Source of the DNA: Escherichia coli
GTDB taxonomy: Bacteria; Pseudomonadota; Gammaproteobacteria; Enterobacterales; Enterobacteriaceae
DNA length: 64,000 nucleotides
Strand: one strand, 5' to 3'
Assembly: GCF_003334305.1 (NCBI RefSeq)
Contig: NZ_QOWS01000021.1
Part shown: positions 15,873-32,413 of the stretch, piece after piece
How positions within the stretch are numbered: position 1 is the stretch's first letter
Layout of the letters: the number at the start of each line of letters is the position of its first letter
The notes under the pieces: model-generated
Told to the model about the DNA's origin: nothing
The model's database searches: none
What the model saw: the letters and a program-made list of their open reading frames with translations, nothing else
Program-made: the position numbers and the translations under genes

Positions 15873-16136
15873 ACGGCCTCCCTAACGGAAACCGCAGAAT
15901 GCAGAAAATCGCAGGTGCATTTCTGCATCTGTGACAAGGTGATGAGTTCAGATTGTGGTCGCATTTAAGTCCCCTTAAATGCGCAGAAGTCACCGGAGTT
16001 GTTCAGGCTCCGATGAGAGGATTATGGCGGATTGATTACGATAAATCAAAACTATCTTGAAGCCAAAACAGTGATCTTCGCTTTAAAAACCTTGTATACT
16101 TTCACCTAATCACAGCCAGAACTATGGATCTAACCA

Positions 16137-16514
16137 ATGACCAACAAAGAAAACAAAGATAAATATATTAACAAGTTCAAGAAAGAGCTTTCAAAATATA
16201 TACAACCAACTGCTGGAGTGGACATTCAATTATTTAACTCTAAGGATGGTGGTGGTGTAATTAAAGCCACTTTGAATAGAAGTGGAAAAAGAAAATCATC
16301 TATTGCAGGTAATTTTACTAAATTAGGTGAGGCAATTACCTCGAGTGGGCAGAGGGTTTTTGGTGGTGATCTATCAAATGTAAATTTTTACGGAACAAAT
16401 ACGATTTTTGATGGAGATACAATATTTTTAATTAAATCACCTGATTCAGAGGAGTGGTCATCACAAAAAGCTTCCAAAGACGTAGAGGGCATCGTATTTG
16501 GAGGGAAAAAATGA
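16137..16514 (+). CDS. Hypothetical soluble protein (125 aa), moron gene 1
   Basis: ORF MTNKENKDKYINKFKKELSKYIQPTAGVDIQLFNSKDGGGVIKATLNRSGKRK...; AT-rich; opposite strand to neighbours; stop overlaps next gene start (ATGA); no family recognised. Confidence 0.55.
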   Translation: MTNKENKDKYINKFKKELSKYIQPTAGVDIQLFNSKDGGGVIKATLNRSGKRKSSIAGNFTKLGEAITSSGQRVFGGDLSNVNFYGTNTIFDGDTIFLIKSPDSEEWSSQKASKDVEGIVFGGKK

Positions 16515-18743: not shown

Positions 18744-19289
18744 TCATATTGCCCCCAACATGGTGGTAACCATCGCCATCAATGGACCAGCCAGATCCGG
18801 GTCCACACGAAACATCGACACAATACCTTCACTCATCTCCTTCAGTTTCTGGTGGCGTGGTGCGTTGAGAATGACAGCCTGTTTTGCCTCACTGAGTTCC
18901 TTTTCCATTTCAGCCAACCGAGTCATGAAGCTATCCTGCTCAACCAGGTAACCGCGATATTCCAGCGGTAGTACCGCCAGAATTGCCGGGGTCAGTTCAC
19001 GCACGTTATTTCGGTATTTTTCAGAATCGAATTTGTTATCGAGGAAGCGGAACAGCTTCTGGCGTGCACGGCTGACATCATCAGGGAAATCGATGGTGCC
19101 GCCGCCCTGTGCTCGATACTCATTCACAATGAGTGCGGCAACAACATCCTGATTATCTGCAGCCGACCAGGCGCGGACGGCATCACGGATTTTTTCGTGG
19201 CCTGGCACCTGTTTTGTTTGAGAACGATTTATCACCGCAGTCGGGCTAAATCCGCTAGTCTGTTGGTATGTAAGTGGTTGCATAGTCAT
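18744..19289 (-). CDS. Hypothetical regulatory protein at the cII position (possibly YdaT-like)
   Basis: 181 aa MTMQPLTYQQTSGFSPTAVINRSQTKQ...NEYRAQGGGTIDFPDD...; placement directly downstream of cro-like gene; family assignment uncertain. Confidence 0.5.
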   Translation of the reverse strand: MTMQPLTYQQTSGFSPTAVINRSQTKQVPGHEKIRDAVRAWSAADNQDVVAALIVNEYRAQGGGTIDFPDDVSRARQKLFRFLDNKFDSEKYRNNVRELTPAILAVLPLEYRGYLVEQDSFMTRLAEMEKELSEAKQAVILNAPRHQKLKEMSEGIVSMFRVDPDLAGPLMAMVTTMLGAI

Positions 19290-19313
19290 TGCCTTATCAG
19301 TTAACGCCGCAGT

Positions 19314-19541
19314 TTAGGCGGCAGAATTACTCGCGTTAAACAATGGTGCGAGGTCGGGACGAATATCTGCTGGTTTAATCTTTCCACCAGTGGCTGAGAC
19401 AATTTTCATTACATAGCGGGCATCAATTCCGCCACCGTGTAGCCAACGCCAAACTGTGGGTTGGGCTACACCGCATAGATCTGCCAGTCGTTTTTGACTA
19501 CCTGTAATACTGATTGCGAGTTGAATGGTTTGATTTGTCAT
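19314..19541 (-). CDS. Cro-like HTH repressor (YdaS/Cro family)
   Basis: ORF 19314..19547 (TTG) trimmed to ATG at 19541: MTNQTIQLAISITGSQKRLADLCGVAQPTVWRWLHGGG...; divergent from cI; AGGA SD. Confidence 0.75.
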   Translation of the reverse strand: MTNQTIQLAISITGSQKRLADLCGVAQPTVWRWLHGGGIDARYVMKIVSATGGKIKPADIRPDLAPLFNASNSAA

Positions 19542-19572
19542 TATCAATTCCTATTGGTATTGCAATGAATGA

Positions 19573-19601
19573 ATAATAGCAATGAGTATTAACCCAAGCA
19601 A
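19573..19601 (-). promoter_or_regulatory. Candidate PR promoter (-35 TTGCTT, 17-bp spacer, -10 TATTAT on minus strand) overlapping OR operator repeats
   Basis: Minus-strand ttgctt gggttaatactcattgc tattat upstream of cro-like gene; AGCAAT/ATTGCT repeats overlap. Confidence 0.55.
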
Positions 19602-19615
19602 TAGCAAAACGTGTT

Positions 19616-19643
19616 TTGACCATCAATACGCAAGCGTATAAAT
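19616..19643 (+). promoter_or_regulatory. Candidate PRM promoter (-35 TTGACC, -10 TATAAAT region) giving a leaderless or near-leaderless cI mRNA
   Basis: ttgacc at 19616..19621 and tataaat at 19637..19643; cI ATG at 19652 has no SD, as for lambda PRM/cI. Confidence 0.45.
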
Positions 19644-19651
19644 TAAAACTT

Positions 19652-20344
19652 ATGAAAAAAGAAACTCTTGCTGATCGCTTAAATCTAGCGATGGAACAAT
19701 CTGGAATGTCTCAAGGCGCTCTTGCAAAGGCGTCTGGCGTAGCTCAACCCACAATCTGGAGACTGACAAGCGGCAACGCGCGCGGCTCAACAAAAATTGT
19801 TGAAATAGCTAATGCATTGGGTGTTCGAACAGAATGGCTCTCTTCAGGCATAGGCCCGATGAGAAATGACGGTCAACAATCAGGGAAGCCTGCTGTCAGC
19901 CATTCCAAATACTTCAAAATTGACGTTCTTGATATAGAAGTCAGTGCCGGGCCGGGTGTAATCAACCGTGAGTTTGTAGAAGTTCTACGCTCGGTTGAAT
20001 ACTCGTTTGACGATGCTCGTCACATGTTCGATGGCAGGAAGGCGGAAAATATCCGCATCATTAACGTGCGTGGTGACAGCATGTCAGGAACGATCGAACC
20101 AGGTGATCTGCTGTTCGTTGATATCACGGTTAAATCTTTCGACGGTGATGGTATCTATGCGTTTCTGTATGACGACACCGCCCATGTAAAACGCCTGCAA
20201 ATGATGAAGGATAAGCTGCTGGTTATCTCTGATAACAAGAGCTACTCACCGTGGGACCCGATCGAGAAAGACGAGATGAACCGCGTGTTCATCTTCGGGA
20301 AAGTCATCGGGAGCATGCCGCAGACATATAGAAAGCATGGGTAG
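19652..20344 (+). CDS. cI: CI-type prophage repressor (N-terminal HTH, C-terminal S24 LexA-like autopeptidase)
   Basis: ORF 19616..20344 trimmed to ATG 19652: MKKETLADRLNLAMEQSGMSQGALAKASGVAQPTIWRL... and C-terminal ...VRGDSMSGTIEPGDLLFVD...HVKRLQ (Ser/Lys dyad motifs). Confidence 0.88.
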   Translation: MKKETLADRLNLAMEQSGMSQGALAKASGVAQPTIWRLTSGNARGSTKIVEIANALGVRTEWLSSGIGPMRNDGQQSGKPAVSHSKYFKIDVLDIEVSAGPGVINREFVEVLRSVEYSFDDARHMFDGRKAENIRIINVRGDSMSGTIEPGDLLFVDITVKSFDGDGIYAFLYDDTAHVKRLQMMKDKLLVISDNKSYSPWDPIEKDEMNRVFIFGKVIGSMPQTYRKHG

Positions 20345-20473
20345 AAATCAGAACAAAATTATGCACTTCGCTTTTCAGCTTACTGTAGTAAGGCAATAAA
20401 TTAGGCTTGACGTTAGCTATCAGGTGCACAACAATAATTGTTGAATAATAGGTTTTTTTAACTAGGTGATAAC

Positions 20474-21613
20474 ATGGCAGCGGTTGAATTTCAATTGTCT
20501 AGGAAGATGATTGATTGGATAGCAAATTCTCAAGGAGTTTCTATCGAAACTCTTGCTGACCAAGTCATGCCCAAAAAGATTAATAAATTTCTTAACGGAG
20601 TGGTAAGTAAATCCGCAGCAGAAAAACTGGCAAAAATTGGAGGAATCCCTTTCGGTTTTTTATTTCTTGAAACGCCACCAACTCCAGCCAAACCCAAGAT
20701 CCCTGACTTAAGGCAAGCTATAAATAGCCGTGAGTTAGGAAAAGATTTTTTTGATGTTTACTATGATATAGAATATAAACTTGAGTGGTACAAAGACTAT
20801 TTAAGAGAAAATGGTAATGATGATCCACTCGATTTTATTGGTAAATTTAAATTTAATAGAAAATTAAATTATAAGGTTGTTGCTACAGACATAGCAAACA
20901 CAATACATTTTGATATACAAAAAGAGATAAAAAATGTCACTTTTGAGAGCTATTTTTCTAAAGTGGCAAAACTAATAGAAGACACTGGCGTATTAGTTTT
21001 CAAGAATGGTGTTGTGGGTAATAATAATAAAAGAAAACTTGACACGCGAGAGTTTCGTGGTTTCTGTATATCTGATAGCGTTGCTCCGATCATTTTTGTA
21101 AATAGCTCGGACGCGTTATCTGCGCAGGTATTTACATTATTTCATGAGGTGGCTCATCTTTGGCTTGGAGTCGATGGAGTCTCTGGGTGGGACACAGAAA
21201 AAAACATAGAATCTTTTTGTAATAAAGTTGCTGCTGAAATCTTAATGCCTGATAATCTCTTCAAATCTTTCTGGCTTAATGCATCCAGCGATAATAATTA
21301 TTATCGAGTAAAAGAGGTTTCTAAGTTATTTAAGGTTAGTGATTTCGCTTGTGCAATCAAAGCGTTACAATTAGATTTGATAGAAAGAAACACTTTGGAG
21401 ATAATTAAAGATCAAGCTTACAATAAGCCCAAAAAAGAATCCAATGGTGGTTCTTTCTTTAACACATTACCTGTTCGTAACAGTCCAAAACTTACGAATA
21501 TAATAATTTCCAAAGCAATGTCTCAACAATTACCATTAAGGGAAGCAGGCGTACTGCTAAATGTAAAAGCAGATACAGTTGTTGAATTTTATAAAAAACG
21601 AGAATCTCTATGA
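20474..21613 (+). CDS. HTH (XRE-like) domain fused to ImmA/IrrE-family zinc metallopeptidase (COG2856/DUF955-like), 379 aa
   Basis: AGGTGA SD 4 nt upstream; N-terminal HTH-like segment (SIETLADQVMPKKINKFLNG...AEKLAKIGGIP); HExxH motif in FTLFHEVAHLWLG and downstream E...AAEILMP motif typical of ImmA/IrrE peptidases; AT-rich. Confidence 0.75.
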   Translation: MAAVEFQLSRKMIDWIANSQGVSIETLADQVMPKKINKFLNGVVSKSAAEKLAKIGGIPFGFLFLETPPTPAKPKIPDLRQAINSRELGKDFFDVYYDIEYKLEWYKDYLRENGNDDPLDFIGKFKFNRKLNYKVVATDIANTIHFDIQKEIKNVTFESYFSKVAKLIEDTGVLVFKNGVVGNNNKRKLDTREFRGFCISDSVAPIIFVNSSDALSAQVFTLFHEVAHLWLGVDGVSGWDTEKNIESFCNKVAAEILMPDNLFKSFWLNASSDNNYYRVKEVSKLFKVSDFACAIKALQLDLIERNTLEIIKDQAYNKPKKESNGGSFFNTLPVRNSPKLTNIIISKAMSQQLPLREAGVLLNVKADTVVEFYKKRESL

Positions 21614-22122
21614 TTCATAATGGAAAATTCTTAATTGATAGTAATGTCTTCATAGAGGCAAAAAACTTTGCATATAACTTCAATTATTGCAAAATATTTT
21701 GGGATTTTCTTCTCGCTTTACACATTAATGGTCTGATTTATAGCATTAATGCTGTAAAAAAAGAACTATGTGCAAAAGATGATCCATTGTGTAAATGGAT
21801 TAAAGAAGAGTTACCATCATCATTCTTCGAAGATGAGCATAGTTCAATAGAAAATTATGCAAAGTTAATAAATTGGTCAACTAAATTAGATGTTACCGAA
21901 AAGGCAAAGTTTGATTTTGCAAGCCATGAAAAAGCAGATGCTTTTTTAATAGCCCATGCGATGACACATGGATATACTATTATTACCCATGAGAAACCAT
22001 CCGGTGGCAAACCTAAAAAAAGAATAATGATCCCGGATGCTGCTGCTTCTCACGGCGTTAAGACATTAACACTATATGAATTTCTTCCAAGATACGCTAG
22101 TCATAATTTTTCTTTGAAATAA
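21610..22122 (+). CDS. PIN-like (DUF4411-type) putative nuclease, 170 aa
   Basis: Start overlaps upstream stop (ATGA); N-terminal FLIDSNVFIEA resembles the first acidic PIN strand; ADAFLIAHAMTHGYTIITHEK resembles a later PIN motif; AT-rich; domain call from memory of DUF4411. Confidence 0.65.
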   Translation: MIHNGKFLIDSNVFIEAKNFAYNFNYCKIFWDFLLALHINGLIYSINAVKKELCAKDDPLCKWIKEELPSSFFEDEHSSIENYAKLINWSTKLDVTEKAKFDFASHEKADAFLIAHAMTHGYTIITHEKPSGGKPKKRIMIPDAAASHGVKTLTLYEFLPRYASHNFSLK

Positions 22123-22127
22123 AACGT

Positions 22128-22154
22128 CCCGGCCACCGTGCCGGGTTTTCTTTT
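22128..22154 (+). terminator. Rho-independent terminator after the two-gene cassette
   Basis: cccggccaccgtgccggg hairpin followed by ttttctttt immediately after the stop at 22122. Confidence 0.75.
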
Positions 22155-22276
22155 GCCTCCCCTCATCACACACACCGTTCAAAAAACCACCACAACCCCG
22201 CTTCAGTTATCGCTATGCGATGCAAGTCACAAAATTAATTCTTTTTGCTATCAAATATTTAATATCAAAACACATC

Positions 22277-22323
22277 TAGCAATAGCAATAAGTATTGATA
22301 TCATCAATAGCAATAGCTATTAT
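22277..22323 (+). promoter_or_regulatory. Candidate PL promoter (-35 TTGATA, 17-bp spacer, -10 TATTAT) with OL operator repeats
   Basis: ttgata tcatcaatagcaatagc tattat at 22295..22323; AGCAATAGCAAT repeats shared with the cro-cI intergenic region. Confidence 0.6.
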
Positions 22324-22396
22324 CACCATGTCGCAACAACACAACGATACGGCAATCACCTGATTCACCGTTGCGATGACCGCTTAGATCCGCAGC

Positions 22397-22807
22397 TTGA
22401 ATTTCAGCAGGCTCCGGGGAGTGCGAGGGGTGAAGCGGACGCGTGAACGTCGGTGTGACCAGCTGAAATCAACTCAACACTTCATACCTCAGTCGCTTCA
22501 ACGAGGCGGCTTAGTTATGACAACCGGCGGCCATCCACCGCCTGAATACGCGCAGAAGTCTTTATATGTTCAGCAGCCCAGCTTACGGGCAGGAGTTTTT
22601 ATGGTTCATCAACATTACGGAACGCAGACCGTTAATCGCGGTGCGGTCATGCCAGGAATGCTGGTCAAACACAAAGATGGTACCTGGACTGCATCAGCTA
22701 ATTTACGCGGACGGCTTTATCTGCATCGCGGCATCGAGCGCACTTATACCCGTGATTTGCTCGTAGAAGTTTTTCTCGACGGACGCGGTAACGGCCTGAA
22801 TCACTAA
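22397..22807 (+). CDS. Hypothetical protein, first ORF of PL operon (Arg-rich N-terminus; possible N-like or Kil/CIII-region protein)
   Basis: ORF with TTG start; N-terminus ...RLRGVRGVKRTRERR...; no confident homology recalled. Confidence 0.3.
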   Translation: MNFSRLRGVRGVKRTRERRCDQLKSTQHFIPQSLQRGGLVMTTGGHPPPEYAQKSLYVQQPSLRAGVFMVHQHYGTQTVNRGAVMPGMLVKHKDGTWTASANLRGRLYLHRGIERTYTRDLLVEVFLDGRGNGLNH

Positions 22808-22883
22808 CCCCCCTTTCCTGTTTTCCTAATCAGCCTGGCATTTCGCAGGCGATATTTTCACAGCCATTTTCAGGAGTTCAGCC

Positions 22884-23180
22884 ATGAACGCTTATTACAT
22901 TCAGGATCGTCTTGAGGCTCAGAGCTGGGCACGTCACTACCAGCAGATCGCCCGTGAAGAGAAAGAGGCAGAACTGGCAGACGACATGGAAAAAGGTCTT
23001 CCACAGCACCTGTTTGAATCACTCTGTATCGATCATTTGCAACGCTGCGGGGCCAGCAAAAAAGCCATTACCCGTGCGTTTGATGACGATGTTGAGTTTC
23101 AGGAGCGCATGGCAGAACACATCCGGTACATGGTTGAAACCATTGCTCACCACCAGTTTGATATTGATTCAGAGGTATAA
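22884..23180 (+). CDS. gam: Gam (RecBCD inhibitor), short form
   Basis: 98 aa [52 protein letters not shown]...; matches lambda Gam; upstream in-frame sequence also resembles the long-form N-terminus. Confidence 0.92.
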
Positions 23181-23185
23181 AACGG

Positions 23186-23971
23186 ATGAGTACAGCACTC
23201 GCAACGCTGGCAGGAAAGCTGGCTGAACGTGTCGGCATGGATTCTGTCGACCCACAGGAACTGATCACCACTCTTCGCCAGACGGCATTTAAAGGTGATG
23301 CCAGCGATGCGCAGTTCATCGCATTGTTGATCGTCGCCAACCAGTACGGCCTTAATCCGTGGACGAAAGAAATTTACGCCTTCCCTGATAAGCAGAACGG
23401 CATCGTTCCGGTGGTGGGCGTTGATGGCTGGTCCCGCATCATCAATGAAAACCAGCAGTTTGATGGCATGGACTTTGAGCAGGACAATGAATCCTGTACA
23501 TGCCGGATTTACCGCAAGGACCGTAATCATCCGATCTGCGTTACCGAATGGATGGATGAATGCCGCCGCGAACCATTCAAAACTCGCGAAGGCAGAGAAA
23601 TCACGGGGCCGTGGCAGTCGCATCCCAAACGGATGTTACGGCATAAAGCCATGATTCAGTGTGCCCGTCTGGCCTTCGGATTTGCTGGTATCTATGACAA
23701 TGATGAAGCCGAGCGCATTGTCGAAAATACTGCATACACTGCAGAACGTCAGCCAGAACGCGACATCACTCCGGTTAACGATGAAACCATGCAGGAGATT
23801 AACACTCTGCTGATCGCCCTGGATAAAACATGGGATGACGACTTATTGCCGCTCTGTTCCCAGATATTTCGCCGCGACATTCGCGCATCGTCAGAACTGA
23901 CACAGGCCGAAGCAGTGAAAGCTCTTGGATTCCTGAAACAGAAAGCCACTGAGCAGAAGGTGGCAGCATGA
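23186..23971 (+). CDS. bet: Bet (Red-beta single-strand annealing protein)
   Basis: 261 aa [48 protein letters not shown]...; matches lambda Bet. Confidence 0.93.
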
Positions 23972-24648
23972 TACCGGACATTATCCTGCAGCGTACCGGG
24001 ATCGACGTGAGAGCTGTCGAACAGGGGGATGATGCATGGCACAAATTACGGCTCGGCGTCATCACCGCTTCAGAAGTTCACAACGTGATAGCAAAACCCC
24101 GCTCCGGAAAGAAATGGCCTGACATGAAAATGTCCTACTTCCACACCCTGCTTGCCGAGGTTTGCACCGGTGTGGCTCCGGAAGTTAACGCTAAAGCACT
24201 GGCCTGGGGAAAACAGTACGAGAACGACGCCAGAGCCCTGTTTGAGTTTACTTCCGGCGTGAATGTTACTGAATCCCCGATCATCTATCGCGACGAAAGT
24301 ATGCGTACCGCCTGCTCTCCGGATGGTTTATGCAGTGACGGCAACGGCCTTGAACTGAAATGCCCGTTTACCTCCCGGGATTTCATGAAATTCCGGCTCG
24401 GTGGTTTCGAGGCCATAAAGTCGGCTTACATGGCCCAAGTGCAGTACAGCATGTGGGTGACGCGAAAAGATGCCTGGTACTTTGCCAACTATGACCCGCG
24501 CATGAAGCGTGAAGGCCTGCATTATGTCGTGATTGAGCAGGATGAAAAGTACATGGCGAGTTTTGACGAGATGGTGCCGGAGTTCATCGAAAAAATGGAC
24601 GAGGCACTGGCTGAAATTGGTTTTGTATTTGGGGAGCAATGGCGATGA
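23968..24648 (+). CDS. exo: Exo (Red-alpha 5'-3' exonuclease)
   Basis: 226 aa [50 protein letters not shown]...; matches lambda Exo. Confidence 0.93.
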
Positions 24649-24827
24649 AGCATCCTCACGATAATATCCGGGTAGGTGCGATCACTTTCGTCTACTCCGT
24701 TACAAAGCGAGGCTGGGTATTTCCCGGCCTTTCTGTTATCCGAAATCCACTGAAAGCCCAGCGGCTGGCTGAGGAGATAAATAATAAACGAGGGGCTGTA
24801 TGCACAAAGCATCTCCTGTTGAGTTAA
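24639..24827 (+). CDS. Hypothetical small protein (62 aa)
   Basis: ORF in PL operon between exo and xis; no family recognised. Confidence 0.4.
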
Positions 24828-24991
24828 GAACGAGCATTGAGATGGCACATAGCCTTGCTCAAATTGGAGTCAGGTTTGTGCCAATACCAGCAGAAACAGA
24901 CGAAGAATTTCATACGTTAGCCACATCCCTTTCACAAAAGCTGGAAATGATGGTGGCGAAAGCAGAAGCAGATGAGAGAGACCCGGTATGA
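24800..24991 (+). CDS. Hypothetical small protein (63 aa)
   Basis: ORF in PL operon; no family recognised. Confidence 0.4.
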   Translation: MHKASPVELRTSIEMAHSLAQIGVRFVPIPAETDEEFHTLATSLSQKLEMMVAKAEADERDPV

Positions 24992-25067
24992 CAGCCACGG
25001 AATGCATTTTTCTGGCAGCGGGCTTCATATTCTGTGTGCTTATGCTTGCCGACATGGGACTTGTTCA

Positions 25068-25289
25068 ATGACACCTCAGCAGGAAAACGCCCTTCGCAGC
25101 ATTGCCCGTCAGGCTAATTCTGAAATCAAAAAAGCCAGACAGCAGTTTCCGGATAAAAACGTCGATGACATTTGCCGTAGCGTACTGAAGAAGCACCGTG
25201 AAACGGTAACGCTGATGGGATTCACACCGACTCATTTAAGCCTGGCGATCGGCATGTTAAACGGCGTCTTTAAGGAACGGTTAACATGA
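25068..25289 (+). CDS. Hypothetical small protein (73 aa)
   Basis: ORF 24972..25289 trimmed to internal ATG (MTPQQENALRSIARQANSEIKKARQQF...). Confidence 0.4.
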   Translation: MTPQQENALRSIARQANSEIKKARQQFPDKNVDDICRSVLKKHRETVTLMGFTPTHLSLAIGMLNGVFKERLT

Positions 25290-25381
25290 AAAGCAAAATC
25301 ATCAGGGAGCTACAGGCTCCTTTTTTATTGTTCGCATTCATCCTCAAGCGTATTAACCAACAATTCAGGGATTAATGGAAG

Positions 25382-25600
25382 ATGGCAGACATCATTGATT
25401 CAGCATCAGAAATCGAAGAATTACAGCGCAATACAGCAATAAAAATGCGTCGTCTGAACTACCAGACTGTATCCGCAACTCATTGTTGTGAGTGTGGCGA
25501 TCCGATAGATGAGCGAAGACGCCTGGCTGTTCAGGGTTGTCGGACTTGTGCAAGTTGCCAGGAGGAGATCGAACTTAAGAACAAACAATGGGGACTGTGA
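25382..25600 (+). CDS. TraR/DksA-family C4 zinc-finger protein
   Basis: 72 aa with CxxC...CxxC (HCCECGDPIDERRRLAVQGCRTCASCQEE). Confidence 0.65.
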   Translation: MADIIDSASEIEELQRNTAIKMRRLNYQTVSATHCCECGDPIDERRRLAVQGCRTCASCQEEIELKNKQWGL

Positions 25601-25647
25601 TGGCCTCAAAGCAGCAAATTTCAACATCGTCCAACTGAGGTGTAAAA

Positions 25648-25926
25648 ATGTTCAGAATCATTTTTCCTAACACCTGGTACGTCGACCACCACGGCACTCC
25701 CTGCAAAATCCTGCGTTCTACCCACAACAAAGTTCACTACATCCGAAAAGGCAGAACATGTATCGCCAGCATGTTCCGCTTTAATCATGACTTTGAACCT
25801 GTGAATAAAGCTGATGCAGATCAGATAGCAGAAGAGATCGAAACGGCAGAACACATTAAGAAGTTACGTGACATGCGTTCAAAAAGCAGAGGTAACCATG
25901 GAATCATACAGCCTCACACTCGATGA
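25648..25926 (+). CDS. Hypothetical protein (92 aa)
   Basis: ORF upstream of xis-like gene; no family recognised. Confidence 0.4.
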   Translation: MFRIIFPNTWYVDHHGTPCKILRSTHNKVHYIRKGRTCIASMFRFNHDFEPVNKADADQIAEEIETAEHIKKLRDMRSKSRGNHGIIQPHTR

Positions 25927-26269
25927 GGCCTGTCAGTTTCTTAAGATATCCAGACCAACCGCCACCAACTGGATACGAACAGGCCGCCTACAGGCAACAC
26001 GTAAAGATCCAACCAAGCCAAAATCTCCTTACCTCACAACACGGCAAGCCTGCATTGCGGCGCTTCAGTCTCCGCTGCATACTGTCCAGGTGAGCGCGGG
26101 TGATGGCATAACAGAGGAAAGAAAATGTCACTCTTCCGCAGAAATGAAATATGGTATGCCTCGTATTCGCTCCCGGGCGGGAAACGAATTAAGGAATCTC
26201 TTGGCACAAAGGACAAGCGGCAAGCTCAGGAGTTGCACGACAAGCGAAAAGCAGAACTCTGGCGAGTAG
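25898..26269 (+). CDS. Excisionase-like protein (Xis/AlpA-type HTH); reading frame continues into int
   Basis: [38 protein letters not shown]... directly upstream of int; unusually long overlap with int (about 145 nt), so 3' end uncertain. Confidence 0.45.
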
Positions 26270-27288
26270 AAAAGCTAGGGGATTTACCTGATGTCACTTT
26301 TGAAGAGGCCTGCCTAAGATGGCTTGAGGAAAAAGCTGATAAAAAATCTCTCGATTCAGATAAAAGCCGGATTGAGTTCTGGCTTGAACATTTTGAGGGT
26401 ATAAGGCTTAAAGATATCTCGGAGGCAAAGATTTACTCTGCTGTAAGCAGAATGCATAACAGAAAGACGAAAGAAATATGGAAACAGAAAGTTCAGGCCG
26501 CCATCAGGAAAGGTAAAGAACTGCCTGTTTATGAACCAAAGCCAGTATCAACTCAGACAAAGGCAAAGCATCTTGCCATGATAAAGGCCATTCTCCGTGC
26601 TGCAGAACGCGACTGGAAGTGGCTGGAAAAAGCGCCTGTCATCAAGATACCAGCGGTCAGAAACAAGCGAGTCAGATGGCTGGAAAAGGAGGAAGCAAAA
26701 CGCCTTATTGATGAGTGCCCCGAACCACTGAAATCTGTCGTCAAGTTTGCGCTGGCAACTGGTCTGAGAAAGTCGAACATCATAAATCTGGAATGGCAAC
26801 AAATCGACATGCAGCGACGAGTTGCCTGGGTGAATCCAGAAGAGAGCAAATCAAACCGCGCCATTGGTGTGGCGCTGAACGATACCGCCTGTAAAGTGTT
26901 GCGTGATCAAATAGGCAAGCATCACAAATGGGTGTTTGTACATACCAAGGCGGCTAAGCGAGCAGATGGAACATCAACGCCTGCGGTCAGGAAGATGCGC
27001 ATCGACAGCAAGACATCATGGCTATCAGCTTGTCGTCGTGCAGGAATTGAAGATTTCCGTTTCCATGACCTCAGACACACCTGGGCAAGCTGGCTGATTC
27101 AGTCAGGCGTCCCATTATCAGTGCTTCAGGAAATGGGCGGATGGGAGTCCATAGAAATGGTTCGTAGGTATGCTCACCTTGCGCCTAATCATTTGACAGA
27201 GCATGCGAGGAAAATAGACGACATTTTTGGTGATAATGTCCCAAATATGTCCCACTCTGGAATTATGGAGGATATAAAGAAGGCGTAA
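26125..27288 (+). CDS. intD: Tyrosine integrase (IntD/DLP12 type)
   Basis: 387 aa [38 protein letters not shown]... with C-terminal ...[16 protein letters not shown]...RRYAHL catalytic motifs; adjacent to tRNA-Arg. Confidence 0.92.
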
Positions 27289-27303
27289 CTGATTGAATTG
27301 TAA

Positions 27304-27380
27304 TGGCGCGCCCTGCAGGATTCGAACCTGCGGCCCACGACTTAGAAGGTCGTTGCTCTATCCAACTGAGCTAAGGGCGC
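27304..27380 (-). tRNA. argU: tRNA-Arg (anticodon UCU), argU
   Basis: Reverse complement GCGCCCTTAGCTCAGTTGGATAGAGCAACGACCTTCTAAGTCGTGGGCCGCAGGTTCGAATCCTGCAGGGCGCGCCA; cloverleaf-compatible, ends CCA. Confidence 0.93.
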
Positions 27381-27622
27381 GTTGATACCGCAATGCGGTG
27401 TAATCGCGTGAATTATACGGTCAACCCTTGCTGAGTCAATGGCTTTTGATCTGGTTGCTGAACAAGTGAACGACCGCGTCTGATTTTCTGATTTATTTCG
27501 CTATAGCGGCAAACAAACACACACCGCTGCGCGTCTGAATCAAGAAAACCCGTATTTTCATGTATCAAAGTACAATTTACCGCCCTAACGGAAAATTGTC
27601 CGCTCCTATGAGACTGGTAACT

Positions 27623-28255
27623 ATGAAACCAACGTCGGTGATCATTATGGATACTCATCCTATCATCAGAATGTCTATTGAAGTTCTGTTGCAAAAAAAC
27701 AGTGAATTGCAGATTGTCCTGAAAACGGATGATTACCGCATAACCATCGATTATCTCCGAACCCGTCCTGTTGATTTAATCATTATGGATATAGACTTGC
27801 CCGGAACAGACGGTTTTACCTTCCTGAAAAGGATCAAACAAATCCAGAGCACAGTGAAAGTGTTATTTTTATCATCGAAATCAGAATGCTTTTATGCTGG
27901 CAGAGCGATACAAGCTGGTGCTAACGGTTTTGTCAGTAAATGCAATGATCAGAATGATATTTTTCATGCCGTTCAGATGATCCTCTCCGGATACACGTTT
28001 TTTCCCAGCGAAACGCTTAACTATATAAAAAGCAATAAATGTAGTACGAATAGTTCAACGGTCACTGTACTATCTAATCGTGAAGTGACCATATTACGTT
28101 ATCTGGTTAGCGGATTATCTAATAAAGAAATTGCCGATAAGTTATTACTTAGCAATAAAACAGTTAGTGCGCATAAATCTAATATTTATGGCAAGCTAGG
28201 TTTGCATTCAATTGTAGAACTTATCGACTACGCCAAATTATACGAATTAATATAA
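27623..28255 (+). CDS. fimZ: Fimbrial response regulator FimZ (LuxR-type)
   Basis: ORF 27560..28255 trimmed to MKPTSVIIMDTHPIIRMSIEVLLQKNSEL...; 210 aa. Confidence 0.9.
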   Translation: MKPTSVIIMDTHPIIRMSIEVLLQKNSELQIVLKTDDYRITIDYLRTRPVDLIIMDIDLPGTDGFTFLKRIKQIQSTVKVLFLSSKSECFYAGRAIQAGANGFVSKCNDQNDIFHAVQMILSGYTFFPSETLNYIKSNKCSTNSSTVTVLSNREVTILRYLVSGLSNKEIADKLLLSNKTVSAHKSNIYGKLGLHSIVELIDYAKLYELI

Positions 28256-29803: not shown

Positions 29804-32413
29804 TTATGAGCCAGGATGTGTGCAAACTGCCGAAATAACAGTGACGGCTTGCTGTAAGCTTTGCTTCGGCAATACATAGTGCGCAATGCAGCGTGAGTTC
29901 GCGCCGTCTCCCCACTGAACCAGTAATTCACCAGACAATGGCGCACCACTTAAATAAACTTGCCCGTCATCACCCACCATACTGGTTATTCCGGTACTGT
30001 TTTCCCGTACCAGTGATCCAAACGGCACCGGTTTTCCGCCCTGGGTAACGGTAATGAGCGCCCGCACGCCTATGCGGGTATCAAAATTGGCACGAACCAA
30101 CGCGCCTTGCGTCGGCACAACGCTGCTAATATTTTTTTCAACATCGATGGAATTCCCCATCGTATTGGTATCAAGCGCGATACGGTTATACCGATAAACC
30201 GTGGCATACGGCATCACCGCATAGCCGCGCCAGTCGGTTAAAATGCCAGTTTGATTTTCAATGCGTACACCGCCTGCGCCAGGCGCTTTAATCAAAACAT
30301 TGGTATCCCCTAAAGGCTGGCTCAGCGTTATGCCATTTTCGTGCCCGACCACACCGCCAGACAGCTGCCAGTTAACGTCATGTTGATCGCGGTCGTAGTT
30401 ATACCCGACCCCCAGCGTACCGTAAGTGGCCTGCCAGTTTGCCGTGGCGCTGCCCGTATACCCATTATTCGAGGTATCACCCTGGCTTACGTGATAACTC
30501 AGGTTGTGGCCTTCCAGTAAGGTCCCACCTACACCTGCCAGCCAGCTATTTTGCCCGTTGCTGTTACGGTTGGCGTTAAAGGAGGCATAAGCGCGGTCGA
30601 GCGCATTTTCCCGGGTGTAGCGACGTTTGGTCAGAACATTGAAAGGCACTGAAACATTAAGTCCGACAATACGTTCGTTATCGGGGATCCCTACAGATTC
30701 ATTCCACGAAAATGAGAGTGAATAACTGATACCAACCCAGCTGCTGGTATACCCCACCTGATACCAGGTATCTGAATCCGAAGTATTCCAGTATTTTTGA
30801 TGGGTACCAGAGATATAAAGCGAGCCAAAGTCATTAAGTGATTGTGAAATATTTAACTGCAAACGGTCTTTACGGCTAAAGCGTAAATTGTGGTAATTCA
30901 CGATTATCGGTTCATCCCGATGCTCACCGTCGTAATCGTAATCATATTCGTACCCCTCCATTCGACGATACGCAACATCATCAAGGGTATAAAAACCTTG
31001 TGTCGAATAGCGGTAACCCATTAACTGAAAATTGGTGCCGAAGGTGTTCATCGATTTCGCATAGAGGAAGCGAATGGAATCCCCCTCATGACGACTGTCG
31101 TCGGCTAACTGACTGCGCGCATGGGTCACATCCAGCGACACTGCCCCCCAGTTTCCGAGATTGCGCCCCAGTCCTAATAAAAAGGCGGTGTAATTGGCAG
31201 ATAATTGCGTCCCGCCGTAGGCAGTAAATTCCTGTGGTAAACCGCCGAGTGCCGTGCCCTGAAAAAAGAAAGGTGATGATTGCTGACTATTACCGCTACG
31301 AAAATCGCCCGCCTTCAGGTCAAATTTGAAACGCCCTTCGCGTTGTAAAATCGGCACTGTTGAATACGGAATTGTGTAATTCTGCTGATTGCCATCGCGC
31401 TCGTCGATGGTGACATCCAGATCGCCATTTGAAGATGTCGGGTGCAAATCTGTAATTTCAAAAGCGCCGGGGGAAACATAGCTTTGATAGATAATCAAAC
31501 CATTTTGCCGAATCGTTAGCTGGGCCGCCGTACGGGCAATCCCACGTACCGTTGGGGCAAACCCTTGCTGGCTATCAGGATACATATTATCGGAAGAGTA
31601 AAGCCGTATACCACGAAATCCAACACCATCGAAAATATCACTTCCTGTATTGCCGTCTCCCATTACCAGTTCACTTTTCAGCGGAATAATGGCGCGCTGT
31701 ACCCAGGTGCCAATATTATTCCACTGCTCTGAATGATATCCATTTCCGCGAAAATAGTTCCAGGAACCATTGTTGCGTAAACGCCACGGGCCAATATTAA
31801 TCCCGCTGAGCTCACTAAAAAAATAGCTATCGTTACCATTACCTCTGTTACCGGTGAAATTATAATTCAGGAGTAAAGCAGGAATACCTTCATCCCACTC
31901 TTCAGGCGGAATGTAACCGTGAGCGCTACTCAACAACGCTATCTGAGGAATAGTGATGTTCAGGCGCATCGCTGCAAAATCAAAGTTAATTGTGGCATCA
32001 GGTACAGCTTTCAGTAAATTGATGCATTTATTGTTTTGCTGCTGGGCTAACTCGGGAAATGCACTGCTATTAAGGCCAATTCGTTCAAGGAGTACCTGGT
32101 TAAAACAGGGCATTAACCCACCTGATTTATCACCTGTATTTTCTGTTGTCGATTCAAATACGATATCCTGTGAACCAATGAACTCATCATTACGCCAGAG
32201 ATCCACCCGATACACGCCCGCAGGTTGATGATTACCTCTCTCAAAGCGCGATAAATCAGCAACGGATGTGCCATTCTCTAATAAAAATGCCGGGTTGAAA
32301 TAACTTTCCGCATAGCTTAAAAAGGAGGGTAAAATGGCAAGAGATGAATAACAAATTCCGGCCAGACACCAGGTATACCTCTGCGGAATATCCGTAGTAG
32401 TGGGTATTTTCAT
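29804..32413 (-). CDS. sfmD: Fimbrial outer-membrane usher SfmD
   Basis: 869 aa ORF; usher-sized, position in sfm operon. Confidence 0.9.

Follow-up and report, generated by a model that had tools for sequence, protein, structure and literature searches.

A predicted orthologue of bacteriophage lambda Orf73, a short zinc-finger protein of the TraR type, in the left early operon of an Escherichia coli prophage at argU

DksA is a protein of about 150 aa that carries aspartates on the tip of its coiled coil and needs ppGpp for full activity. The same zinc-finger family includes much shorter proteins, and one of them, TraR of the F plasmid (PDB structures: 5W1S, 6N57 and 6N58), is encoded in the conjugative transfer operon; according to the literature, DksA and its short relatives use the same site in the secondary channel of RNA polymerase. 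In the cryo-EM studies cited in PMC9239242, TraR inserts its N-terminal helix into the secondary channel, with the aspartates close to the active site; its zinc domain rests on the rim helices and β' Si3, and Si1 of the β lobe is contacted by the C-terminal helix. Glu46, Arg48 and Arg49 of TraR, which form an ExxRK segment, touch the rim helices and β' Si3 (cryo-EM work cited in PMC9239242; see also PMC8614690).

Bacteriophage lambda encodes a member of this group, Orf73 (also known as Orf2310). As reported by Gopalkrishnan et al. (mBio 2022, PMC9239242), purified Orf73 and DksA compete for E. coli RNA polymerase, and Orf73 inhibits rrnB P1 as strongly as TraR does (IC50 about 50 nM); rpsT P2 is likewise inhibited. 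The inhibition requires Asp3 and Asp6 but no ppGpp, and the protein complements a dksA deletion. Expressed from pL of a single-copy prophage, Orf73 lowered pre-rRNA to 29% (a more than 3-fold reduction of rRNA synthesis) and rpsT mRNA to 45%; the same account describes slower host growth and, following mitomycin C, a phage yield that is 3- to 4-fold higher with Orf73 (PMC9239242). Unlike TraR, it activated the host promoters tested there weakly if at all, with no detectable activation described, and the authors suggest that two extra cysteines may explain this missing activity (PMC9239242). The literature defines the DxxDxA motif, the C4 motif and the ExxR(K/L) segment as hallmarks of TraR and Orf73 (PMC9239242, PMC8614690) and lists an acidic position of the C-terminal helix among them (PMC8614690), and Orf73 has been modelled on TraR independently (PMC8614690).

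The DNA analysed here (the window, 64,000 nt of E. coli DNA) contains an open reading frame at positions 25382-25600 of the plus strand, which starts with ATG and has 72 codons and a stop ending at 25600. Its product is MADIIDSASEIEELQRNTAIKMRRLNYQTVSATHCCECGDPIDERRRLAVQGCRTCASCQEEIELKNKQWGL. We searched this protein against several family collections. Positions 4-35 (of 36) of the Pfam model PF01258 (zf-dskA_traR) match its residues 33-64 with 37.0 bits and E=3.5e-9, and PHROG 54 ("DksA-like zinc-finger protein") matches at full length with E=3.6e-26. The best NCBIfam match is TIGR02419 (C4_traR_proteo, phage/conjugal plasmid C4 zinc finger protein, TraR family), which aligns end to end (residues 3-64 with positions 1-64 of 64, E=2e-14) at 53.9 bits, narrowly under its curated cutoff of 59.7. 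The two equivalog models score far below their cutoffs: NF010268 for F-plasmid TraR gives 25.8 bits against 108, and NF008243 for YbiI gives 42.8 against 96. Judged by these scores, the protein is best described as a homologue of F TraR and not as its equivalog. Searching the PDB with phmmer recovers TraR from its RNA polymerase complexes (5W1S and 6N57, E=7.7e-5) over residues 1-69, aligned with TraR residues 1-71. The best sequence match in the PDB is YbiI (2KGO, E=1.2e-5), which covers the zinc-finger half only (residues 31-67); YbiI is a chromosomal protein, with 108 residues in the PDB chain and 88 positions in the NCBIfam model.

An earlier note on this DNA, made from the sequence alone, had described a 72-aa protein with a C4 zinc finger of the TraR/DksA type between exo and int. 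The position is right (exo at 23968-24648 and int at 26125-27288, all three genes on the plus strand), and so is the zinc finger: the zf-dskA_traR profile search that the note proposed is positive, the zinc cysteines Cys35, Cys38, Cys56 and Cys59 are spaced CxxC-17-CxxC, which together with the PF01258 match places the protein in the DksA/TraR C4 zinc-finger superfamily, and the alignment with TraR runs from end to end. The joint family label divides, however: the protein belongs with the short TraR proteins, which have one N-terminal helix and whose characterised members act independently of ppGpp. It is no DksA, since it has 72 residues and no coiled coil, and DksA structures align with it partially and rank below TraR. 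The note's further remark, that such small proteins can bind the secondary channel of RNA polymerase and reprogram transcription, describes what has been shown for lambda Orf73 (PMC9239242).

Sequence hallmarks outside the zinc finger agree with this placement. The N-terminus carries DxxDxA at residues 3-8 (M-A-D3-I-I-D6-S-A8), aligned with Asp3, Asp6 and Ala8 of TraR; the segment E44-R45-R46-R47-L48 (ExxRL, 44-48, also present in lambda Orf73) aligns with TraR E46-A-R48-R49-K50; and Glu64 is the acidic residue of the C-terminal helix. All the features examined for the TraR/Orf73 subfamily, namely DxxDxA, a chain of roughly 70-75 aa built from three structural elements, the ExxR segment and the C-terminal acidic residue, are present. 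F TraR belongs to the same length class and has the same three-element architecture, DxxDxA motif, four zinc cysteines, two arginines and C-terminal glutamate, and its mechanism is presumably the same, but the two proteins are only 31% identical, the one described here is encoded in a phage early operon, and it has two more cysteines, Cys36 and Cys53, both shared with lambda Orf73. In an alignment of 37 sequences comprising homologues from Escherichia, Citrobacter and Enterobacter together with lambda Orf73 and TraR, Asp3, Asp6, Ala8, Cys35, Cys56, Gln60 and Glu64 are invariant, and Cys38, Cys59, Arg46, Arg47 and the extra cysteine Cys53 are nearly so.

[quoted passage not shown] Compared with the PDB by Foldseek, the model has TraR (6n57_M) as its top match (probability 1.00, 71 columns, TM 0.58, with a modest E-value of 1.6e-3), followed by YbiI as the second-best fold match, TraR again (5w1s_M), and DksA (7khi_M, 5vsw_M, 1tjl_A), whose matched chains have 140-145 residues against 72 here.

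The closest characterised relative is lambda Orf73 itself. It has 73 residues and is 87.3% identical to the 72-aa protein over 71 residues, sharing the N-terminal 26 residues including DxxDxA, all six cysteines and the DERRRL segment. Nine substitutions distinguish the prophage allele from it (H27Y, A29T, I30V, V49A, D62E, L63I, I66K, S67N and R70W), and the tail reads WGL instead of RGSK, so that the last two positions are rearranged and the protein is one residue shorter. The last ten residues are EEIELKNKQWGL, as compared to EDLELISKQRGSK in lambda, a point against equal behaviour of the two proteins, the C-terminal helix being the part of TraR that contacts β Si1. In the 37-sequence alignment, however, the tail of the protein studied here (EEIELKNKQ-GL) resembles the subfamily consensus more than that of lambda does. 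The lambda gene, at positions 30402-30614 of lambda, is unannotated in NC_001416, where it lies between ea22 and orf61. The flanking DNA is collinear and nearly identical in the two genomes, through the orf61 homologue, a terminator-like hairpin (t2, see below), the ribosome-binding region and orf73 itself; the homology stops near the stop codon, after which lambda has ea22 and the prophage a gene for a DUF4222 protein. The similarity and the shared position 3' of an orf60a-orf63-orf61 block both point to membership in the lambda Orf73 orthologue group, and we take the 72-aa protein to be, in all probability, the Orf73 orthologue of this prophage, in the TraR branch of the DksA/TraR family. 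Two further proteins are 100% identical to it, E. coli RefSeq WP_000763385.1 and gp31 of Shigella phage SfI (SfI_0031), and both have the same flanking genes up to xis and int; the latter is annotated merely as "hypothetical protein". In all, tblastn with the 72-aa protein matches 514 phage records.

Open reading frames of this size commonly arise by chance (61 frames of 30 aa or more overlap with the 5 kb around it), so that length alone is no proof and the status of the gene rests on other evidence. Three overlapping frames, two of them antisense (25392-25553 and 25421-25627) and one on the plus strand in another frame (25509-25670), were considered as real genes and rejected, having no PHROG matches at E<=0.1. 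The 25382-25600 frame, compared with lambda orf73 over codons 1-61, has seven codons that differ only synonymously and four in which the amino acid is altered. The first 71 codons contain about 46 synonymous and about 167 non-synonymous sites, i.e. about 3.6 times more of the latter, and the excess of silent changes despite this ratio indicates purifying selection on the intact coding sequence. Upstream of it, AGGGA at 25367-25371 of the plus strand, 10 nt 5' of the ATG, is the probable Shine-Dalgarno sequence; it is kept in lambda and SfI in a three-way DNA alignment, and GGAAG, which abuts the ATG, is not conserved in the same comparison.

The gene belongs to a lambdoid prophage inserted at the tRNA-Arg gene argU (anticodon tct), beside fimZ and the sfm fimbrial operon. 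The tRNA gene, which serves as the attachment site, lies on the minus strand at 27304-27380 (ARAGORN; Rfam tRNA, 72 bits; RefSeq), and RefSeq places fimZ at 27623-28255 (ORF start at 27560). On the plus strand, a cI-like repressor gene is followed by genes for an ImmA/IrrE peptidase and a DUF4411 protein, then by kil (22601-22807; RefSeq and phrog_294), gam (22884-23180), bet (23186-23971) and exo, the last three as open reading frames that are also annotated in RefSeq. Next comes the conserved exo-xis block (24639-25289), recognised from its open reading frames, PHROGs 1998, 292 and 303, RefSeq and the lambda alignment. It comprises the homologues of orf60a (DUF1317, 24645-24827 with the frame open from 24639), orf63 (DUF1382, 24800-24991) and orf61 (25068-25289). 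After the TraR/Orf73-type gene, the order continues with the DUF4222 gene (25648-25926; phrog_285 and RefSeq), an excisionase-like frame (25898-26269), which matches phrog_2907 (excisionase) with E=5.9e-46, and the intD integrase gene (RefSeq). The prophage thus differs from lambda in having another immunity region, the argU-specific integrase IntD, and no N gene.

Lambda orf73 is under the control of the repressor-regulated leftward early promoter, and the same control would be expected in this prophage. The cI-like repressor (19652-20344, plus strand), labelled "XRE family transcriptional regulator" in RefSeq, has the Pfam domains HTH_3 (E=3.4e-6) and Peptidase_S24 (E=1.9e-18). A 16-bp operator motif, AATAGCAATNAGTATT, has nine matches with up to 3 mismatches as compared to 1.9 expected, a number reached in none of 100 shuffles, and eight of the nine fall into two clusters. 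One of these, at 19506-19615, resembles OR: its four sites are flanked by the cI-like and cro-like genes, which diverge from it. The other, at 22237-22321, resembles OL and contains three sites that account for four matches, the palindromic site 22306-22321 being counted once per strand. Two of the matches, 22281-22296 and 22306-22321, overlap a PL-like promoter detected by promoter scan on the plus strand at 22295-22323 (TTGATA-17-TATTAT, 10 of 12 consensus positions), which points toward kil, gam, bet, exo and the TraR/Orf73-type gene. The earlier note's assignment of the gene to a PL operon is well supported by the operator clusters and this promoter-like site, but, with no N antiterminator gene in the prophage, the term is restricted here to position and repressor control and does not extend to N-dependent transcription of the lambda style. 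The arrangement suggests that the repressor likely keeps the left operon off in the lysogen and that SOS induction would release it; given the combination of HTH_3 and Peptidase_S24 domains, RecA-stimulated self-cleavage would be the expected trigger.

Transcription from such a promoter would meet two terminator-like hairpins found by a terminator scan. The first, at about 24709-24741 of the plus strand within the orf60a homologue, has the same sequence as the predicted terminator t1 of lambda and phi24B (PMC4195576, Table 4). The second occupies 25304-25331, some 50-80 nt 5' of the start codon, and reads AGGGAGCT-ACA-GGCTCCTT and then TTTTATTGTT; it corresponds to predicted t2 of the same phages (Bloch et al. 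2014, PMC4195576, Tables 3-4). It is identical, base for base, in lambda and SfI, and the 51-nt segment that includes it (25290-25340) has a folding energy of -11.1 kcal/mol (z=-2.3). In lambda, polymerase modified by N would read through t2. RefSeq annotates no N gene in this prophage, nor in phage 4A7. An Rfam search for nut- or put-like RNA over 19000-27500 at E<=1 returned only the tRNA and chance matches, the PL leader (22330-22520) folds no better than its shuffles (z=-1.3), and blastn detected neither similarity to the 18-30 kb region of HK022 nor, anywhere in the window, a second copy of the leader that could be a putR-like partner. RNAalifold on eight phage leaders gave no compensatory pairs, because these leaders are almost invariant. 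The mRNA of lambda orf73, ea22 and ea8.5 is less abundant than that of the genes 5' of t2 (PMC4195576), and ribosome profiling cited in PMC9239242 indicates translation of lambda Orf73 even though the identical hairpin precedes its gene. The level of expression in this N-less prophage is nonetheless uncertain in view of t2, and is the weakest link in the interpretation. A weak promoter, p1 (TCATCA ... TTTTATTAT), has been predicted to overlap t2 (PMC4195576). It is conceivable, although we consider it very improbable, that uninduced lysogens transcribe the gene from p1 and so maintain a standing, ppGpp-independent, DksA-like brake on rRNA synthesis that scales with prophage load.

The same DNA is widespread. 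The tested 1.6 kb is 100% identical to the chromosome of E. coli A7 (NZ_CP028767.1), where the protein is labelled WP_000763385.1, "TraR/DksA family transcriptional regulator", and near-identical DNA is present in 61% of complete E. coli genomes (3312 of 5426), in up to 6 places per genome, with consistent RefSeq annotation to the TraR/DksA family. The gene, the family, the RNA polymerase-bound structure and the function of the lambda orthologue have thus all been published or annotated already, and none of them is new here.

Taken as a whole, the data are best explained by an Orf73 orthologue of an argU prophage that is controlled by the phage repressor and shuts down ribosome synthesis via RNA polymerase, a reading to which we assign a probability of about 0.87. 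In the lysogen, the cI-like repressor would hold the PL-like promoter off; upon SOS-triggered self-cleavage of the repressor, transcription of the leftward early operon would yield the protein together with Kil, Gam, Bet and Exo. The orthologue would then bind host RNA polymerase directly, with no requirement for DNA or ppGpp. Its N-terminal helix is predicted to extend down the secondary channel and bring Asp3 and Asp6 of DxxDxA near the active site, while the rim helices and β' Si3 would serve as docking site for the four-cysteine zinc domain with Arg46 and Arg47; contacts with the β lobe and Si1 would come from the C-terminal helix. Open complexes would be destabilised at kinetically sensitive promoters, such as those for rRNA, ribosomal proteins and possibly dnaA, so that synthesis of new ribosomes would halt, host growth would slow, and resources would be redirected to phage production. 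As every residue named in the studies of TraR and Orf73 is conserved, we have high confidence that the allele would work by the same mechanism as lambda Orf73. We also infer that the allele, with its nine substitutions and one residue fewer, behaves like lambda Orf73 and is expressed in the prophage.

Other roles for the gene deserve consideration, and the most serious of them, though still unlikely, is that it mainly serves the lysis-lysogeny decision or blocks initiation of host replication (the "bin" phenotype of the lambda exo-xis region), either via RNA polymerase at promoters such as dnaA or via another partner, and that ribosome shut-off is not its principal task. Deletion of orf73 lowers host survival and the efficiency of lysogenisation, which has been read as "pro-lysogenic" in the literature summarised in PMC8614690, and earlier work cited in PMC9239242 implicates orf73, ea22, ea8.5 and orf55 in inhibition of host replication initiation; in vitro, lambda Orf73 inhibits dnaA P2 at about 420 nM (PMC9239242). 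The published deletion phenotypes conflict, which counts against the preferred reading as well: one group describes a pro-lysogenic function and lower yield and the other higher yield (PMC9239242, PMC8614690). Effects on lysogeny and replication, however, are phenotypes and not mechanisms, and they fit a protein that acts primarily by binding RNA polymerase. When Orf73 was made from a single-copy prophage, dnaA mRNA fell weakly if at all, as compared to the more than 3-fold effect on rRNA reported in PMC9239242, and the sequence gives no hint of a second binding partner. There is even less reason to think that the protein is only superficially TraR-like, a small zinc ribbon with a target other than RNA polymerase, for instance a nucleic acid, and we regard this as scarcely credible. 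The Pfam model indeed covers the zinc-finger half only, C4 zinc ribbons are a common fold, and the Foldseek E-values are modest, but the similarity to TraR extends over the full length and takes in DxxDxA and the C-terminal helix, both outside the zinc finger, and in lambda the 87%-identical protein occupies the DksA site of RNA polymerase and depends on Asp3 and Asp6 for its activity, according to PMC9239242.

A different kind of doubt concerns the prophage and not the protein. The gene might be an intact but silent passenger of a decaying prophage without N, in which leftward transcription ends at t2 and the host is unaffected. RefSeq marks the Rz and Rz1 lysis genes as frameshifted and the xis region as a fragment, and on account of the Rz/Rz1 frameshifts the prophage may be decaying. 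The terminator-like hairpin with its T-run directly 5' of the gene, the lack of an annotated or detectable N gene, a PL leader with neither an Rfam match nor significant structure, and the low level of orf73 mRNA in lambda relative to upstream genes (PMC4195576) are all in line with silence. Against this, the coding sequence is intact and under purifying selection, 61% of complete E. coli genomes retain the gene, and the excisionase-like frame matches phrog_2907 at full length. Isolated temperate phages, e.g. 4A7, carry the same N-less layout of the left operon together with the gene, and lambda Orf73 is translated downstream of an identical t2 (ribosome profiling cited in PMC9239242). On balance we consider silence improbable, somewhat more so than a main role in lysogeny or replication, and prefer the repressor-controlled Orf73 orthologue acting on ribosome synthesis through RNA polymerase.

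Two minor observations concern the genes between the repressor and gam. The ImmA/IrrE peptidase and DUF4411 genes were considered as a known defence system and rejected, as the PADLOC matches are weak and limited to the peptidase (capP, 9.8e-15; RmrA, about 1e-7), with none for DUF4411. The frame that contains kil begins further upstream (ORF 22397-22807); only residues 60-136 of its translation match a family (Kil, phrog_294), and none of its upstream starts is preceded by a convincing ribosome-binding site. Within this frame, 5' of kil and in phase with it, there is an arginine-rich segment, KRTRERRCDQLK, which resembles the RNA-binding motif of N proteins.

The gene for the TraR/DksA-family protein (25382-25600, plus strand), an orthologue of lambda Orf73, is present in 3312 of the 5426 complete E. 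coli genomes, at a median of one and a maximum of six places per genome, and 25 of its places are plasmid-borne. Because a genome may contain up to six such places, many E. coli strains hold this RNA polymerase-binding factor several-fold, on different prophages. Immediately upstream lies the site of p1, a weak promoter predicted in PMC4195576 that overlaps the t2 hairpin (25304-25331). Its -10 region, at 25327-25335 on the plus strand, reads TTTTATTGT in the window, versus TTTTATTAT in lambda, phi24B and SfI, so that, if p1 is real, the window version would differ by one base within the -10 nonamer.

The orf61 homologue (25068-25289, plus strand) encodes an uninterrupted 73-aa protein of phrog_303, in the window as well as in SfI. 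In the lambda comparison locus (L002), by contrast, an A-run consists of seven residues instead of six, the frame is shifted, and the annotated orf61 is truncated; since the extra A breaks the frame, lambda orf61 looks like a frameshifted version of the common gene. Downstream of the gene for the TraR/DksA-family protein, the only RefSeq annotation at 25898-26269 (plus strand) is a 66-nt helix-turn-helix pseudogene fragment. The 123-aa ORF that spans this interval aligns from end to end with the excisionase family PHROG 2907 (E=5.9e-46). In phage SfI the equivalent ORF is annotated xis; the excisionase of this prophage may therefore be intact.

The leader of the operon, about 270 nt from the PL-like promoter to kil (22324-22600), is approximately 97-100% alike in eight phages, including those at comparison loci L006-L012. 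The operators and promoters directly 5' of it fall into two markedly different types of immunity in this set, and the break in similarity between the types coincides with the predicted transcription start. All eight left operons are devoid of an N gene. Among the possible reasons for its conservation are a mosaic joint at this point, translation of a longer Kil, and a function of the leader RNA itself. Significant structure was not found in the leader, nor was covariation across the eight phage leaders, or a second copy of it elsewhere in the window. An ORF at 22397-22807 (plus strand) is in frame with kil and adds 68 codons at its 5' side; it includes an arginine-rich stretch, KRTRERRCDQLK, which resembles the motif TRRRERRAEKQ with which lambda N binds RNA. 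The family match of this ORF is limited to the Kil part (phrog_294, residues 60-136), and longer Kil starts, giving 96 or 128 aa, are annotated in some phage records.

Directly 3' of the cI-like repressor gene, where lambda has rexA and rexB, lie two genes that together take up 20474-22122 (plus strand), one for a 379-aa metallopeptidase of the ImmA/IrrE family and one for a 170-aa DUF4411 protein. They are followed by a two-way terminator-like hairpin (22128-22145). Related phages have other cargo at the same spot, either an antitoxin (GevA or HipD) or a protein with an ASCH domain. When compared with PADLOC, the peptidase produced weak matches alone (capP, 9.8e-15; RmrA, about 1e-7), and the DUF4411 protein produced none. 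The Rz-type and Rz1-type (rzoD) lysis genes, at about 15980-16450 (1331652-1332114 in the record of E. coli A7, NZ_CP028767.1, which is identical to the window over the 1.6 kb tested), are frameshifted or partial according to RefSeq, and the prophage may therefore be defective for lysis. Its accessory cargo includes iss, which is bor-like, and a gene for an OmpC-like porin; DLP12, a prophage that occupies the same site, carries such cargo too.
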